A stretch of DNA of 64,000 nt from Candidatus Kaiserbacteria bacterium (GTDB taxonomy: Bacteria; Patescibacteriota; Minisyncoccia; Phycocordibacterales; UBA918). The notes under the pieces were generated by a model, which was given only the letters and a program-made list of their open reading frames with translations, searched no databases and was not told the DNA's origin. Of the stretch, positions 10,222 through 55,441 are shown piece after piece; position 1 is the stretch's first letter; each line of letters starts with the position of its first letter. The DNA is taken from the NCBI GenBank assembly GCA_016699245.1, contig CP064968.1, forward strand, positions 379,331 to 443,330. The letters run 5' to 3'. Position numbers and translations under genes: made by a program.

Positions 10222-10431
10222 ATGCGAGAACAATTTGAACAGAAAAAGTCGCCAGAACAACAAGTGGCTGAGACTATTTCTCTTGTAGAAGGAGAACTTG
10301 CAGACGGACCTCTGTATTCTAAAGAGCACCGAGATGATTTACTCGCCATGCTCGTCACTGCACTCACTATTACAAGTGATGCGAGAGCAAGAGCAAAAAT
10401 AAACGAACTCATGGATGAAGTGATGAATTAA
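10222..10431 (+). CDS. small hypothetical protein
   Basis: 69 aa ORF, helical-looking, no known motif. Confidence 0.3.
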   Translation: MREQFEQKKSPEQQVAETISLVEGELADGPLYSKEHRDDLLAMLVTALTITSDARARAKINELMDEVMN

Positions 10432-10546
10432 CCCCTTCCTAAGATTCACATCTGGACAATCCGCCATCCCCTATGTCATTATAGGTGCCGGCGCGCTCCG
10501 CGCGCGTCAGGATCATACAGCACAAATCAGAACGAAGTAATAATTT

Positions 10547-10617
10547 TGGGGTATCGTCTAATGGTAGGACATCAGGTTTTGGTCCTGAGTATCGAGGTTC
10601 GAGTCCTTGTACCCCAG
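10547..10617 (+). tRNA. tRNA-Gln (anticodon TTG)
   Basis: tggggtatcg...anticodon loop ttTTGgt...T-arm cgaggttcgagtccttg...acceptor tacccca + discriminator g. 5' end identical in pattern to E. coli tRNA-Gln (UGGGGUAUCG). Confidence 0.85.
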
Positions 10618-11143
10618 CTTGTTAACAAAAAGTCCCGCAAGGGATTTTTTGTGTTACAAGCTGGAGGTAAGCACAGTGTGGGACACTGTGCGTCAAGGAC
10701 TCGAAAACCTTCTCGTGATATTATTCGAGTGAAGCGAAGAATAATATCCGAAAGGTGTACTGAATTCGTAGAATTCGAGTCCTTGTACCCCAGCTTGTTA
10801 ACAAAAAGTCCCGCAAGGGATTTTTTGTGTTACAAGCTGGAGGTAAGCACAGTGTGGGACACTGTGCGTCAAGGACTCGAAAACCTTCTCGTGATATTAT
10901 TCGAGTGAAGCGAAGAATAATATCCGAAAGGTGTACTGAATTCGTAGAATTCGAGTCCTTGTACCCCAGCTTGTTAACAAAAAGTCCCGCAAGGGATTTT
11001 TTGTGTTACAAGCTGGAGGTAAGCACAGTGTGGGACACTGTGCGTCAAGGACGAGAAGACCTTGCCTGCTATTTTGTGACGTAAGGAAACAAAATAGCGA
11101 CAAGGTGTACTGAAGTCGTAAACTTCGAGTCCTTATACCCAAC
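10598..11143 (+). repeat. tandem array of 176 bp units (three copies, third diverged), each beginning with the last 20 nt of tRNA-Gln (ttcgagtccttgtaccccag)
   Basis: Copies of the tRNA 3' end at 10598, 10774, 10950 and degenerate at 11124. Units 1 and 2 are near-identical. Unit 3 replaces the inner hairpin with a different but equally perfect hairpin. Each unit has a terminator-like hairpin aaaaagtcccgcaagggatttttt and a segment caaggactcgaa complementary to the tRNA T-arm. Confidence 0.85.
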
Positions 11144-11176
11144 TCGCCACATTTAGTAATTAGGTGTAATATTAAT

Positions 11177-11503
11177 TTGTATATGGCATCACTCAACACA
11201 CACCGAAGCGGTAGTGTTCGAAGTATCATTTTTCGAGAGAAAGATGAGTGGTTTGGTGTTGCTCTCGAATTTAACATTGTTGAGGTAGGAGATTCACCAG
11301 AGGAGGTGATGATGCTTCTTGATGAGGCAATAAAAGGGTACGTTGAGTCAGCCCAAAAGGCGAAACTTTCTGTTCGGACTTTAAATCAAAAATCTGATCC
11401 TGTATATGAAAAACTGTGGGAGTCTCAGTCAAAACCACACAGAAAAACAGGAAAGCAAATTTATCGAGTCTCCTCTCAACCAATTTCCGCACTTGTTTCA
11501 TAA
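11177..11503 (+). CDS. hicB: HicB-family antitoxin (type II TA)
   Basis: SIIFREKDEWFGVALEFNIVEVGDSPEEVMMLLDEAIKGYVES matches the HicB N-terminal (UPF0150-like) fold. Immediately precedes the hicA-like gene. Confidence 0.6.
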   Translation: MYMASLNTHRSGSVRSIIFREKDEWFGVALEFNIVEVGDSPEEVMMLLDEAIKGYVESAQKAKLSVRTLNQKSDPVYEKLWESQSKPHRKTGKQIYRVSSQPISALVS

Positions 11504-11505
11504 AT

Positions 11506-11739
11506 ATGCCTCGCGGTTTCAACAACTGGAGTGCGGCACAAGTCATGAAGTTTTTGAAACGTCATTCTTTTACGCATTCCCACACACGGGGCAGCCATTT
11601 TTATTATGTAGCCAAAGTGAATGGTATTGATAGACAAGTATGTGTACCCGTACACGCTGGTGATAGTATCCACCCAAAAACCATGAAATCGATTATCCTC
11701 CAATCAGGCATTTCTGAAAACGAGTGGAAGAATAACTAA
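11506..11739 (+). CDS. hicA: HicA-family mRNA interferase toxin
   Basis: MPRGFNNWSAAQVMKFLKRHSFTHSHTRGSHFYYV...VPVHAGDSIHPKTMKSIILQSGI fits the HicA/YcfA consensus. ATG at 11506 lies 2 nt after the hicB stop. Confidence 0.65.
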   Translation: MPRGFNNWSAAQVMKFLKRHSFTHSHTRGSHFYYVAKVNGIDRQVCVPVHAGDSIHPKTMKSIILQSGISENEWKNN

Positions 11740-51699: not shown

Positions 51700-52530
51700 T
51701 TTACATGGACCTATTCTCTGTAAATGCTCGTTTTGCGGTCACGAGTTGCTAATTATTTTAGTTCGCTTCGCTTCTAAAATAATAAGCACCTTCATAAATT
51801 CTTTTATGTAAAAGAATTTATGAAGGGCTCAGAAAATATAATCGCTACGCTTATTATTTTCTGGCCACCCCAGCTCGCTGTTCATCACTTTTTGAAAGTG
51901 ACTCACAACGCTCGTGAAATAGTTTCCCAAACTATTTCACCCCGTCGAGCACGTACGTGACGCAGGTCACCTCTTTGCGGTCACGATAAAATTATCTCCC
52001 AGAAAATTTTATCTAAGTCTTTTCAAAGAAAAGTCTAAGCACTCTCGACCCCGACTCACTCGCCTAGCGGCATCGTTCCGTCTCCCGCAAAGGACCGCAA
52101 GCAAAGCAGTTTGCTTGCTACACAAAAGAACAGACACTTTCGTGTCTGTTCTTTTGTGTTCCTTTGCGGGCCCACGAGGGCTCGAAACTTACAGTTTCAG
52201 TACCCCTTTAGGATACTTTTCTTCATTTCATTCGAAAAGATATCTCTAAAGGGCTTCAAATCCTGATCGCACAGTGCCCCGCACTGTGCTTGGGCCCGCC
52301 CAGATATACAAAAAGCTGTCTTATGACAGCTTTTTGTATATCTGGGCGGGCCCACGAGGATTTGAACATTACATGTTCAGTACCCGTTGTGGCTATTTTA
52401 TTTCTTCGCTCTGCGAATCATAAAATAGCACGCAACGGCTTCGAGCCCGTGCTCCTGTTTGCATTCGCAAACAGATGCGCTTCGTGGGCCCGCCATATTA
52501 AAACACCTCATCAAATGAGGTGTTTTAATA
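51700..52530. repeat. non-coding hairpin array: series of perfect 8-30 bp-arm palindromes, including three units carrying copies of the tRNA-Trp 3' end (gcgggcccacgagg...) in both orientations
   Basis: Perfect palindromes at about 51793-51830, 51886-51910, 52105-52160, 52293-52356 (arms include tgggcccgcc) and 52484-52544 (arms = tRNA-Trp 3' end plus terminator). Direct copies of the tRNA 3' segment at 52166-52186 and 52346-52366. Confidence 0.8.
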
Positions 52531-52604
52531 TGGCGGGCCCACGAGGGCTCGAACCTCGGTCGCTGGTTTTGGAGACCAGAATTCTACCACTGAAATATAG
52601 GCCC
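52531..52604 (-). tRNA. tRNA-Trp (anticodon CCA), CCA end encoded
   Basis: gggcctatatttcagtggtagaattctggtctCCAaaaccagcgaccgaggttcgagccctcgtgggcccgcca. Confidence 0.85.
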
Positions 52605-52658
52605 AGGACTCCTATAGTACGGGAAATACGCATTGGGGTCAACGATTATATGAAGAAT

Positions 52659-53114
52659 TTAATAACCTTGGCTAGCCTTCCTTTTTATTATTATCTCCCG
52701 TGCAACTAACTCAGGAACACCAACAGAGACAAGATTTTCTACACTCCAAACGACCGCGGCTTCTGGGATAACTGTCCAACCTTTTTCTGCCGTATACACA
52801 AAAACTGATTCTCCTGCAGAATATCCATCATCCCATTCTTGTAAGGCATAATTTGAAACAATGATGGTATATCCAAGAGTGATTGGGAGTGGTGTCACGA
52901 CTTGCTTTTCAAACGCACTTTTTATCGCTACACGCTTCGTTTGTTCTTCTTGATTGATTGGCGTTTCTGTTGTTCCTGTAGTAGATGATGCTACGGGGAA
53001 AGTTGAGACACTACCATTTGGGGGTTTTGGGAGTTCGTTTGGTGACAGGACCCATAAAGAATAACCTAATCCAATAACTCCGAGAAGCCCAACTAGTATG
53101 ATTATCTTATTCAT
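52659..53114 (-). CDS. secreted hypothetical protein
   Basis: Signal peptide MNKIIILVGLLGVIGLGYSLWVLS. Confidence 0.45.
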   Translation of the reverse strand: MNKIIILVGLLGVIGLGYSLWVLSPNELPKPPNGSVSTFPVASSTTGTTETPINQEEQTKRVAIKSAFEKQVVTPLPITLGYTIIVSNYALQEWDDGYSAGESVFVYTAEKGWTVIPEAAVVWSVENLVSVGVPELVAREIIIKRKASQGY

Positions 53115-53126
53115 AGATTGAAGTTA

Positions 53127-54005
53127 TTAAATTTTATTTATGCTATAGATTCTTCCAGGTCCCGCTTTATAGGATGGGCTAAAACTTGAATCACTTACCC
53201 AAGAAAATGTTTTATTCGATGAACTGTTTGAAATTGTTTTTGTACATCCTGCATTCATGCAAATGCCCGTATGAGATCGTGAACCGTCAGTCACAATAAC
53301 AATATCCCCAGCTTTCGCAGCTGATTGATCAACCAATGTTCCCCTACCTCCTGCAAGTGCTTGCTCCATTGACTTCACACTATTACCATCAATGGGACTT
53401 ATGCCTGCATCTTCTAGTACTTTGTTTACAGCCCATGCGCATGCAAGTGAGCCACCACCAGGACCTCCTGCCGTTGAAAAACCTTGTGCCCCGAGTGCAG
53501 CAGCAGCAATTGATCCTGCACTTCCTCCACCCGGATTCGTCATACCACCCGGACCTGTATTTGTCGTAGCACCACCACTTGGTCCTGTCATCGTGGCGGT
53601 CATCGTTGGATTATCTACACACTGTACTGTACCCCACACCTCAATACCTTTGCCATCACTCATGACGGTCATAAGTATCGTGTTCACAATAAGCCATGCA
53701 CCGAGGAGGATGAAGAAACCTATGATAGAGTTCGACATCATTTCTTTTCCTTCTGAGACTTTTCCAGTGTTCCCTGCGGACATCACCATTTTCATGCCAC
53801 CAAAGGCGAACATGAGGGCAACGATAGTTGCAGATGCGCCTATAAACCAAGTCATCAATCCCTGCCCCATAGCAACAAAGTCACAGACGCGACACATTGG
53901 TTCGGGAGGACCACCACCACAGGGGACTAGGCCTGCAGCGTACGTGACAGAGGCGGTGAGAAGGAAGAGGCTTGTGATGAATAGTATGCGTTGGTTGGTG
54001 GTCAT
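53127..54005 (-). CDS. secreted two-TM pilin-like N-terminal module fused to a C-terminal CHAP/NlpC-P60-like cysteine peptidase/amidase domain
   Basis: Signal peptide plus two hydrophobic helices (VirB2/TrbC-like topology). C-terminus has nucleophile Cys in SLACAWAVN and downstream GDIVIV...SHTGIC His. N-terminal 160 aa about 97% identical to the 54605 paralog. Confidence 0.55.
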   Translation of the reverse strand: MTTNQRILFITSLFLLTASVTYAAGLVPCGGGPPEPMCRVCDFVAMGQGLMTWFIGASATIVALMFAFGGMKMVMSAGNTGKVSEGKEMMSNSIIGFFILLGAWLIVNTILMTVMSDGKGIEVWGTVQCVDNPTMTATMTGPSGGATTNTGPGGMTNPGGGSAGSIAAAALGAQGFSTAGGPGGGSLACAWAVNKVLEDAGISPIDGNSVKSMEQALAGGRGTLVDQSAAKAGDIVIVTDGSRSHTGICMNAGCTKTISNSSSNKTFSWVSDSSFSPSYKAGPGRIYSINKI

Positions 54006-54021
54006 AAAATAAAATTAGACA

Positions 54022-54597
54022 TTATAATGGAACACTACCCGGACAAAAACTAAATCGTAAATCCTGACTTGTGTAAAACTGATTAATAAAATACGGAACG
54101 CTCACCATATAGTCAATCTGGCACAACTGCTCCTCACTGAGTCCAAGATGGGTAAGCAAATATTGCTCAGCACCAGTGCGGGCTTTGCTTATTGGTTCTG
54201 AAGTAAGTGAAATATTGAAGTACTGTGTTTGTGCAACGTACATAATGGTAAAAGGAGGGTATGTTTCTACGAAAGAGCCATCAAGTGGAAAGTGTTCACC
54301 TAAGTGGTAATATCCCTCATTTTGAGGGTCTGCCACGGTGTCTGGGTCACTCATAAAATTACGCACCGAGAGAGTAGCACCCGATGTTGTATTGAGTGTG
54401 AGCAACGTATTACTACTACCCGTATTTGTAGAGGACGTGCCATCTGGATTTTGTGAGGCGTTTGTTCCGCTACTCGGAAACTCTGTTCCTTGATTTTCAG
54501 ACGGAGTATCCACTGCATTATTTGAAATGTAAAACCAAAAACCAAACCCCCCAAGGAGTAGTAATACAATGACGATAATGATGCTTTTATTATTCAT
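54022..54597 (-). CDS. membrane-anchored/secreted hypothetical protein
   Basis: N-terminal TM IIIVIVLLLLGGFGFWFYI then Ser/Thr/Asn-rich region; start chosen at MNNKSIII. Confidence 0.45.
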   Translation of the reverse strand: MNNKSIIIVIVLLLLGGFGFWFYISNNAVDTPSENQGTEFPSSGTNASQNPDGTSSTNTGSSNTLLTLNTTSGATLSVRNFMSDPDTVADPQNEGYYHLGEHFPLDGSFVETYPPFTIMYVAQTQYFNISLTSEPISKARTGAEQYLLTHLGLSEEQLCQIDYMVSVPYFINQFYTSQDLRFSFCPGSVPL

Positions 54598-54604
54598 ATA
54601 CAAT

Positions 54605-55441
54605 TTATGGTCCATACTTTGTAATACACGCTTGAGCTTTTGCATTACAATTGGCACAGGTCCAACTACTATATCCGCTCTGTGACACCAGCTTTTTTGC
54701 TACCTCAGCGTTGCACGATGCATTGGTACAAGACGAAAAACTACTGCAACTCGTGCCTTTTGCAGCACTTTCCCAAGTTGATTTAATGACTTGAAATGTG
54801 CCACATGCACTACCGCTTTTATTTTGCGCTGTAGGATTACCAGAACTCTCTGTCATCGCGATACACGACATGACATTTGCTTGTGAAGGAGTAAAGCCTG
54901 CGGCTGTAAGCGCATTCACACTGCACGCCGGATTAAGGCTCCCACACTGTATACCACTTCCTCCCCCCGGATTCGTCATACCACCCGGACCTGTATTTGT
55001 CGTAGCACCACCACTTGGCCCCGTCATCGTGGCGGTCATCGTAGGATTATCAACACACTGTACCGTACCCCACACCTCAACACCTTTACCATCACTCATG
55101 ACGGTCATAAGTATCGTATTCACAATAAGCCATGCACCGAGGAGGATGAAGAAACCTATGATAGAGTTCGACATCATTTCTTTTCCTTCTGAGACTTTTC
55201 CAGTGTTCCCTGCGGACATCACCATCTTCATACCCCCAAAGGCGAACATGAGGGCAACGATACTTGCAGACGCACCAATAAACCAAGTCATCAATCCCTG
55301 CCCCATAGCAACAAAGTCACAGACGCGACACATTGATTCGGGAGGACCACCACCACAGGGGACAAGCCCTGCAGCGTACGTGACAGAGGCGGTGAGAAGG
55401 AAGAGTGCTGTGGTGAATAGTATGCGGTGGTTGGTGGTCAT
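54605..55441 (-). CDS. paralog of 53127: same pilin-like N-terminal module fused to a C-terminal lytic-transglycosylase (SLT)-like domain
   Basis: CIAMTESSGNPTAQNKSGSACGTFQV resembles the SLT catalytic E-S...GLMQ block; several Cys pairs; N-terminal 160 aa near-identical to 53127 gene. Confidence 0.55.
   Translation of the reverse strand: MTTNHRILFTTALFLLTASVTYAAGLVPCGGGPPESMCRVCDFVAMGQGLMTWFIGASASIVALMFAFGGMKMVMSAGNTGKVSEGKEMMSNSIIGFFILLGAWLIVNTILMTVMSDGKGVEVWGTVQCVDNPTMTATMTGPSGGATTNTGPGGMTNPGGGSGIQCGSLNPACSVNALTAAGFTPSQANVMSCIAMTESSGNPTAQNKSGSACGTFQVIKSTWESAAKGTSCSSFSSCTNASCNAEVAKKLVSQSGYSSWTCANCNAKAQACITKYGP

Follow-up and report, generated by a model that had tools for sequence, protein, structure and literature searches.

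A tandem array of non-coding units behind tRNA-Gln

The DNA analyzed here is a 64,000-nucleotide stretch of the genome of a Candidatus Kaiserbacteria bacterium (contig CP064968.1, positions 379,331 to 443,330), which is called the window below; positions given without a locus name refer to it. A gene for tRNA-Gln(UUG) lies in this window and is followed directly and on the same strand by an array of short tandem units that starts inside the tRNA's 3' end. Tandem Repeats Finder placed the array at 10598-11140 with a period of 176, 3.1 copies, 93% matches and a score of 921. The sequence repeated at the unit boundaries comprises the end of the tRNA from the T-loop to the discriminator. This 20-nt sequence, TTCGAGTCCTTGTACCCCAG, has perfect copies at 10598, 10774 and 10950, while the copy at 11124 deviates at three positions; the chance expectation was 0.01 matches. 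All four copies listed in an initial annotation, which had been made from the DNA letters without database searches, were thereby located. An exact 176 bp periodicity had also been proposed; it holds for the first two spacings (176 and 176), but the positions of the copies give 174 for the last one.

The array consists of three units and a terminal tRNA-end copy (coordinates of all features are collected in Table 1). Units 1 and 2 are the same over their entire length. Unit 3 agrees with them in its first half, and its divergence is confined to the second half. The terminal copy is decayed and is followed by neither a hairpin nor an antisense segment. Only one open reading frame (ORF) extends across the array (10546-10908); it begins inside tRNA-Gln and showed no family match. 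The initial annotation was right that the units are too small for ordinary integrated elements; they measure 176 bp and lack a credible ORF.

Anatomy and predicted fold of a unit

Each cassette has the same order of parts: first the tRNA 3'-end copy, then a terminator-like hairpin, next an antisense of that end in two pieces, and last a body of about 70 nt, termed type A. The stretch from the copy to the end of the split antisense is an imperfect palindrome some 108 nt long. In unit 1, the first part of the antisense, CTGGAGGTA, is directed against the 3' strand of the acceptor stem, and the second part, the 12-nt CAAGGACTCGAA, matches the reverse complement of TTCGAGTCCTTG at every position. 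The two parts are separated by a side hairpin (GCACAGTGTGGGACACTGTGC), which splits the antisense precisely at the junction of acceptor and T-stem. A side hairpin was present at this same junction in every locus read, with examples behind tRNA-Gln, tRNA-Trp, tRNA-Val and tRNA-Ser. The 12-nt complement to the T-arm that had been described for each unit is exact in units 1 and 2, but carries two mismatches in unit 3 (CAAGGACGAGAA). The palindrome CACAGTGTGGGACACTGTG was recovered in all three units as described. The terminator-like hairpin has a strong predicted fold in agreement with its earlier description, but was not called by a simple terminator scanner.

The type A body contains an outer stem with an inner 10-bp hairpin, a conserved linker and a small hairpin whose 3' strand merges with the next tRNA-end copy. 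The arms of the 10-bp hairpin are GATATTATTC/GAATAATATC in units 1 and 2 and GCTATTTTGT/ACAAAATAGC in unit 3. Hence, the hairpin swap reported for unit 3 is real and both versions fold, but we prefer to read it as a different body variant for the reason given below. For the RNA of a unit, a fold of -78.4 kcal/mol (z = -9.4) was predicted, and for unit 3 one of -67.6 kcal/mol (z = -6.9). In the minimum-energy fold of tRNA plus unit, the antisense pairs with the tRNA's own 3' half and the 5' strand of the tRNA pairs with the downstream copy.

A loop motif, GA(R)YGAAG(Y)GAA (for instance GAGTGAAGCGAA and GAACGAAGTGAAT), recurred in bodies and trailers at many loci, with examples at 10729-10741 of the window and at the loci L170, L006 and L013 (the letter L denotes loci from other assemblies); it could be a loop that binds a protein. 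At L170, three tandem hairpins of about 65 nt follow tRNA-Gln.

Compensatory changes in the unit bodies

An alignment of 16 type A bodies yielded a consensus of two hairpin domains with compensatory changes in 19 of the 23 predicted pairs. From this alignment, the covariance model R1 was built and used to search 1.27 Mb of sequence. The search returned 35 matches, and those with E < 0.01 were all located in Patescibacterial loci, 13 of them outside the seed. Most of these stood no more than 430 nt behind a same-strand tRNA; the count of R1 matches in that position was 17. Among the 34 distinct matches, 91.8% of the cells were paired, as compared to 62.2% after shuffling and no more than 48.4% for slid partners; both sides had changed in 21 of the 23 pairs, and the covariation score reached 0.579 versus 0.158 in shuffles, although these figures are somewhat inflated and lean towards structure because the alignment was fitted to the R1 model.

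G-U pairs outnumbered A-C pairs by 33 to 12, which favors folding of the tRNA-sense strand. Furthermore, orthologous tRNA-Gln trailers on three related metagenome contigs (L191 and L206 versus L227) differed by 11 compensatory pair changes; therefore, selection also acts within a single locus lineage. The sense-strand structure of the bodies is under selection. The bodies covary across loci, and we agree with the initial annotation that structure is kept where sequence is not.

A second array in the window and the wider family

The window holds a second member locus, which the initial annotation had overlooked: about 800 nt of modules behind tRNA-Trp on the minus strand. This array has the layout of the tRNA-Gln array with different sequences. 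It comprises two type A units, then a unit with another body, type B, and additional modules as far as about 51717, a weaker A-like match among them; its tRNA-end copies are unlike each other and read TTCGAGCCC, TTCAAATCC and TTCGAGCCC.

Type B occupies the same position as type A and consists of CGAGGYGGGGTCGMGA, a hairpin GTRCTTAG...CTTAGYAAC and TCGTGACC; its closing stem contains a conserved G-U pair. Besides the window, type B bodies were found in L002, L003, L005, L006, L010, L014, L015, L022, L026, L035 and L068. A third body type (..GGCGGAGCRATGT..GTGTCCCGCGGCACTTATGA..GTGACCRTCAGGA) was present in L005, L012, L014 and L068.

The host is a Patescibacterium (Paceibacterota), its GlmS being 88% identical to that of a Ca. 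Paceibacterota metagenome-assembled genome (MAG); the best ~50 GlmS relatives were all labelled as Patescibacteria-group or as unclassified 'uncultured bacterium'. The distribution of the family was surveyed in 80 GlmS-anchored loci and the window, which provided 85 Patescibacterial tRNAs with enough flanking sequence. A direct copy of at least 12 nt of the last 23 nt was found at most 400 nt downstream of 14 of these tRNAs, and an inverted copy of at least 10 nt, over the same distance, behind 21; the corresponding upstream controls gave one and two. At least ten different tRNAs carry such copies (they include Val, Ser, Glu, Phe, Arg, Asp, Thr, Lys, Gln and Trp), and related loci have one to four units. 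The same body types stand behind many tRNAs in genomes with a GlmS 62-88% identical to that of the window. We therefore conclude with high confidence that members of the cassette family reside in the trailers of numerous tRNA genes of Paceibacteria/Patescibacteria.

In metagenomes, the exact tRNA-Gln end was matched at no fewer than 120 loci, about ten of which had single units behind tRNA-Gln; among the matches listed (at least 120 loci), neither a locus with two exact tRNA-Gln-end copies nor a close orthologue with the same flanking genes was seen. The literature searched, which included a 2026 survey of Patescibacterial tRNA genes, contained no description of such arrays in Patescibacteria.

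The same layout with unrelated, GC-richer bodies was observed in L076 (1087-1337, minus strand; an unclassified MAG) and L030 (15272-15493, minus strand). In these loci, an antisense follows soon after tRNA-Lys and tRNA-Asp, and a copy of 20-23 nt stands at +147 to +177. Both genomes are distant (GlmS 44-54% identical), so the layout may extend beyond Paceibacteria.

Polarity and turnover of the arrays

The relation between an antisense and its neighboring tRNA-end copies can be read in type A units whose flanking copies differ; positions were set by matches to the covariance model. In six of seven such informative units, the antisense fits the preceding and not the following copy. Within the tRNA-Trp array, the first antisense fits TTCGAGCCC, the end of the tRNA itself, and TTCAAATCC, the copy that separates units 1 and 2, is matched by the second; either antisense reaches 10/13 against its own preceding copy versus 7/13 against the other. 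In L073, the acceptor part of the antisense also has the variant base of the preceding copy. The antisense follows the copy that precedes it, in what is a small sample, and this is expected if each cassette brought along a tRNA end to replace the existing one.

The start of the repeated block falls within the T-loop in every example, and the terminal copies are decayed in most loci. Orthologous tRNA-Val loci differ in the number and types of their units. Over 67 nt, the body of unit 3 shares 91% identity with one that stands behind tRNA-Val in L003, from a species with a GlmS only 78% identical to that of the window; because of this match, unit 3 is better read as carrying a different body variant than as a product of compensatory evolution in place. 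Most likely, units 1 and 2 represent a very recent duplication and the body of unit 3 an older or imported variant.

L073 (15400-18934, minus strand; Ca. Nomurabacteria MAG JACKGE010000001) has about 3.1 kb between tRNA-Ser and its units. Genes for a Shedu (SduA_C) defence protein and an ankyrin-repeat protein lie in this segment, after which come an antisense, a type B body, a tRNA-Ser-end copy, a hairpin, an antisense, a type A body and a second copy. The features of polarity and turnover fit cassettes that arrive, or are copied, with their own tRNA end on the tRNA-proximal side.

Neighboring genes and search for recombinases

A HicB-HicA pair had been reported directly behind the tRNA-Gln array. 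HicA was confirmed (Table 1), its gene starting 363 bp downstream of the last copy, but the assignment of HicB was not supported: the ORF upstream of hicA (11186-11503, plus strand) had no match in Pfam, NCBIfam or PDB sequences. It may encode a novel antitoxin partner of HicA. The adjacency of these genes to the array looks incidental, since related loci have other neighbors. The rest of the window is housekeeping in character and includes SerRS, DprA, ParB, MiaA, RecQ, RelA/SpoT and GlmS. Beside the tRNA-Trp array (53127-55441, minus strand), two adjacent ORFs combine an N-terminal domain resembling type IV secretion system (T4SS) pilin with CHAP or lysozyme-like (SLT) domains.

No integrase or other recombinase, transposase or reverse transcriptase domain was detected in 30 ORFs of the window, a set made up mostly of those of at least 240 amino acids together with all neighbors of both arrays, and no recombinase was found in the L073 island. 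A search of 2.9 million viral contigs gave no match to the type B core or to the side-hairpin motif. A loose type A pattern had 40 matches in these contigs, of which 36 showed non-complementary 3-nt flanks and four lacked any other feature of the family. The 3' end of tRNA-Gln occurred on two viral contigs, there as part of complete tRNA genes without units.

A consensus scan of positions 10300-11300 found no promoter-like site inside the units; the weak site upstream of tRNA-Gln was the sole one in this interval (one found, 1.9 expected in shuffles).

Table 1. Coordinates of the two arrays, of the parts of a unit and of the hicA gene (R1, covariance model of type A bodies)
Feature	Position	Strand	Basis or remark
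Promoter-like site, TGGACA-18-CATTAT with TG extension, upstream of tRNA-Gln	10453-10482	+	consensus match only, weak
tRNA-Gln(UUG) gene, no encoded CCA	10547-10617 (end 10617/8)	+	ARAGORN; Rfam tRNA 59.9 bits
Last 20 nt of tRNA-Gln, T-loop to discriminator, the repeated sequence	10598-10617	+	sequence match
Unit 1, 176 bp	10598-10773	+	R1 match 10694-10789, 90.2 bits
Terminator-like hairpin: A-run, GC core, T-run	10618-10660	+	unit 1
Antisense of acceptor 3' strand, CTGGAGGTA	10661-10669	+	unit 1
Side hairpin, GCACAGTGTGGGACACTGTGC	10671-10691	+	unit 1
Antisense of T-loop and 3' T-stem, CAAGGACTCGAA	10694-10705	+	unit 1
Type A body	10706-10773, 3' hairpin strand extending to 10776	+	predicted fold; covariation
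Outer stem and 10-bp A/T-rich hairpin of type A body	10706-10756	+	unit 1
Conserved linker GTACTG	10757-10762	+	unit 1
Small hairpin GAATTC-GTA-GAATTC (GTA loop)	10762-10776	+	3' strand merges with next tRNA-end copy
Unit 2, 176 bp, same as unit 1 over all 176 nt	10774-10949	+	R1 match 10870-10965
Unit 3, 174 bp	10950-11123	+	R1 89.9 bits
Unit 3 antisense, CAAGGACGAGAA	11046-11057	+	2 mismatches
Unit 3 body, other type A variant, GTACTG at 11107	11058-11123	+	
Terminal decayed tRNA-end copy, TTCGAGTCCTTATACCCAAC, 17/20 identity	11124-11143	+	sequence match
HicA	11506-11739	+	PF07927, E=6e-10
Second member locus, ~800 nt of modules behind tRNA-Trp	51717-52604	-	
tRNA-Trp, encoding CCA	52531-52604	-	
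Type A units of tRNA-Trp array	52351-52451 and 52171-52266	-	R1 matches
Type B unit of tRNA-Trp array	~52100-51975	-	
Weaker A-like match, tRNA-Trp array	51717-51805	-	

Interpretation and alternative explanations

The array is very probably a stack of three small non-coding cassettes that belong to a family found in tRNA trailers and are, in layout, the counterpart of the tRNA-linked repeats (TLRs) of Escherichia coli. We propose that, as in E. coli, the cassettes would be read on the tRNA strand by read-through of the terminator-like hairpin. The transcript would fold into a chain of long hairpins, with selection acting on that fold, and the tRNA-end copies may serve as tRNA-type 3'-end or processing signals, as reported for E. 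coli TLR transcripts. Growth of the array would take place next to the tRNA, with tRNA-end copies as the partners of recombination or duplication; the tRNA would then owe its working 3' end to the newest cassette, and the older ends would be pushed downstream and decay. The identity of units 1 and 2, the decayed terminal copy and the fit of the antisense to the preceding copy speak for such proximal growth. For this explanation as a whole, including the RNA mechanism, we estimate a probability of about one half.

Several points weigh against a structured-RNA cassette. Read-through and processing in this organism are proposed by analogy with E. coli only, and the pairing figures are inflated as stated above. 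Type A bodies also occur away from tRNA genes, namely in L006 (11527-11623, plus strand, beginning about 20 nt past the glmS stop codon), L002 (12740-12816) and L068 (2319-2414 and 4693-4773); the body is therefore not strictly tRNA-bound. If the antisense had to pair with the copy at the 3' end of its own RNA, in a tRNA-like acceptor stem as in the predicted unit fold, it should track the downstream copy, but it tracks the upstream one, and a model based purely on RNA assigns no role to a terminal copy that decays. If the predicted pairing occurred in vivo, an antisense that sequesters the 3' half of the tRNA would harm the tRNA; on read-through, either co-transcriptional folding of the tRNA would have to win or the long hairpin would need a role of its own. 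The 91% identity of bodies across tRNAs and species is as much a sign of DNA having moved as of constraint.

An alternative is an explanation at the DNA level, in which the units are miniature non-autonomous integrative cassettes that recombine into the T-loop of tRNA genes, are mobilized in trans and accumulate by serial insertion. Such an element would bring a replacement tRNA 3' end and a terminator and displace the old end, and its antisense might aid targeting. Serial integration at a tRNA attB site had already been suggested by the initial annotation, and this suggestion has partial support: the block starts in the T-loop, the distal copy is decayed here and in most loci, and the antisense matched the preceding copy in 6/7 units. 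A regenerated target with a displaced fragment also defines islands in tRNA genes (PMC4383910), and the varying units of orthologous tRNA-Val loci, the body variant shared between the window and L003, and the cargo of about 3.1 kb between tRNA-Ser and its copies in L073 can all be read as signs of mobility. What does not fit is that no integrase, transposase or reverse transcriptase was seen in the ORFs scanned near either array or in the L073 island, that one body type stands behind many tRNAs, with at least ten tRNA species targeted, which neither a sequence-specific integrase nor a single att sequence explains, and that the unit motifs are absent from the 2.9 million viral contigs. RNA-type covariation with an excess of G-U pairs suits a transcript better than arm sites for protein binding, and the reported absence of group II introns from Patescibacteria (PMC13011429) speaks against retro-mobility of that type. 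We regard this explanation as possible, if tentative; it and the structured-RNA explanation are not mutually exclusive. A bolder version, in which the cassettes are new mobile elements without a recombinase of their own that home to tRNA 3' ends by means of an 18-23-nt antisense 'address', appears doubtful. Such elements could be re-targeted to any tRNA and carry cargo, as the Shedu gene of L073 would exemplify, and the 176-bp units could be their minimal, cargo-less form.

The identity of units 1 and 2 is also what a recent duplication would leave behind if the array were a neutral by-product of replication and repair, with template switching making the palindrome and slippage or unequal crossing-over amplifying it, and with neither function nor mobility. 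Contiguous, perfect inverted antisenses of 18-22 nt right after the hairpin in L138 and L005 agree with such an origin. It is nevertheless improbable: compensatory changes, seen from locus to locus as well as between orthologues, maintain the body and side hairpins; many tRNAs are followed by the same body types in genomes with the GlmS divergence noted above; and the side hairpin sits at one and the same junction in every locus read. About equally improbable, or slightly more so, is an artefact of short-read metagenome assembly affecting the copy number or the whole array. Because 176 bp, the length over which units 1 and 2 are identical, exceeds the size of many reads, the actual count of identical units could be larger or smaller; unit 3 and the terminal copy, however, are distinct sequences joined in register, the independent tRNA-Trp array of the same window has non-identical units, and single or multiple units are present in many independent assemblies. 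Finally, the HicA gene 363 bp behind the last copy could suggest that the repeats belong to a toxin-antitoxin locus as a repetitive, type III-like RNA antitoxin, or that they encode a small protein, as the E. coli tyrT repeats overlap the annotated small ORF tpr. This is very unlikely: HicA belongs to type II systems and related arrays have unrelated neighbors, the periods of 176 and 174 are not multiples of three, the sole ORF (10546-10908) starts within the tRNA and is without family match, and substitutions preserve stems rather than codons.

Comparison with known systems

A number of known systems were considered and rejected. An integron attC array does not match, as there is no integrase in the ORFs scanned, no ORFs lie between the hairpins, and the palindrome ends GTTCGAG and CTCGAA misfit the RYYYAAC and GTTRRRY boxes. 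A CRISPR array has unique spacers between short identical repeats, whereas the 156-nt 'spacers' of units 1 and 2 are identical and highly structured. A type III toxin-antitoxin RNA, whose short repeats would stand directly in front of a ToxN/AbiE-type endoribonuclease gene, was dismissed because the downstream toxin belongs to a type II family and related arrays lack a toxin neighbor. Against Rfam, nothing but sub-threshold matches to generic hairpins (miRNA precursors) appeared; ribozymes, RtT, Y-RNA-like RNAs and group I introns were not matched. The idea of a primer-binding site, with an antisense to the tRNA 3' end including CCA, holds for tRNA-Trp but fails for tRNA-Gln. Likeness to Box C/D RNAs, hammerheads and external guide sequences was dropped, the defining motifs being absent from the sequence.

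REP/BIME and REPIN elements are short non-coding hairpin repeats that stand behind genes or terminators, form arrays, vary in number between strains and are mobilized by RAYT transposases. REP elements are not known to carry a duplicate of the upstream gene's 3' end. The units described here are larger and multi-domain, and no RAYT gene was seen among the ORFs scanned.

Genomic islands and prophages integrated into tRNA genes by tyrosine integrases resemble the array in having direct repeats, one being the regenerated tRNA 3' end and the other a decaying copy displaced downstream, in an identity block that starts in the T-loop, and in the possibility of tandem accretion. They differ in that an integrase and cargo lie between their repeats, whereas the units here are 176 bp long and without genes, and no integrase was found in the ORFs scanned. 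A single body type behind many tRNA species and covariation of the folded strand also set the array apart from such islands.

The closest precedent, which the initial annotation had missed, is provided by the TLRs, among them the rtT (RttR) RNA (Egan & Landy 1978; Rudd 1999; both cited in PMC8144298). In E. coli K-12, 22 TLRs are distributed over ten loci with one to five repeats each; their defining feature is a stretch of 18-19 bp identical to the upstream tRNA or rRNA at its 3' end (PMC8144298). The repeats rrA/rrB/rrF lie behind 5S rRNA between two terminators and are transcribed when the first one is read through, and the only function proposed for TLRs in that paper is CsrA/Hfq binding by the three copies behind 5S rRNA (PMC8144298). 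The tRNA-Gln array likewise lies directly behind a tRNA on the same strand; identity to the tRNA end is 20/20 at 10774 and 10950 and 17/20 at 11124, and the number of repeats, three units and a remnant, is within the range of the TLRs. The repeat block starts in the T-loop in E. coli and Patescibacterial units alike. The tyrV trailer of E. coli (tyrT/tyrV repeats) has 3.1 units of 178 bp, each ending in 19 nt of tRNA-Tyr, as compared to 3.1 units of 176 bp here, and in both cases the unit contains a segment complementary to the tRNA-end copy; in E. coli this segment is GGGGAAGGAT, the complement of ATCCTTCCCC, and it closes the predicted fold.

The Patescibacterial units differ from TLRs in the terminator-like hairpin after every copy, in a longer, split antisense (about 21 nt), in a fold with z = -9.4 as compared to -1.1 in E. 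coli, and in interchangeable body types (A, B and others) that are common to many tRNAs. The Rfam family RtT (RF00391, gathering threshold 45 bits) had no match in the window at threshold and none at E up to 10 in 10400-11300 and 51700-52700, whereas the E. coli positive control scored 134-138 bits three times; conversely, the R1 type A model found nothing significant in the E. coli units.

A layout known from E. coli since 1978 is now seen in a very distant, genome-reduced lineage, where a considerable share of the tRNA genes is followed by it, the modules are interchangeable and compensatory changes are plentiful. The arrays also show that minimal-genome bacteria maintain structured non-coding DNA, hundreds of bases long, behind tRNA genes. 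These loci give comparative leverage beyond that of the near-identical E. coli copies, since selected pairings, the copy tracked by the antisense and the gain of cassettes can be read from them. If expressed, the cassettes would constitute a new and common class of structured RNA in Patescibacteria; if mobile, they would represent a new way of targeting tRNA genes. The array is best placed as a new, non-homologous relative of the tRNA-linked repeats, akin to them by layout and widespread in Patescibacteria.

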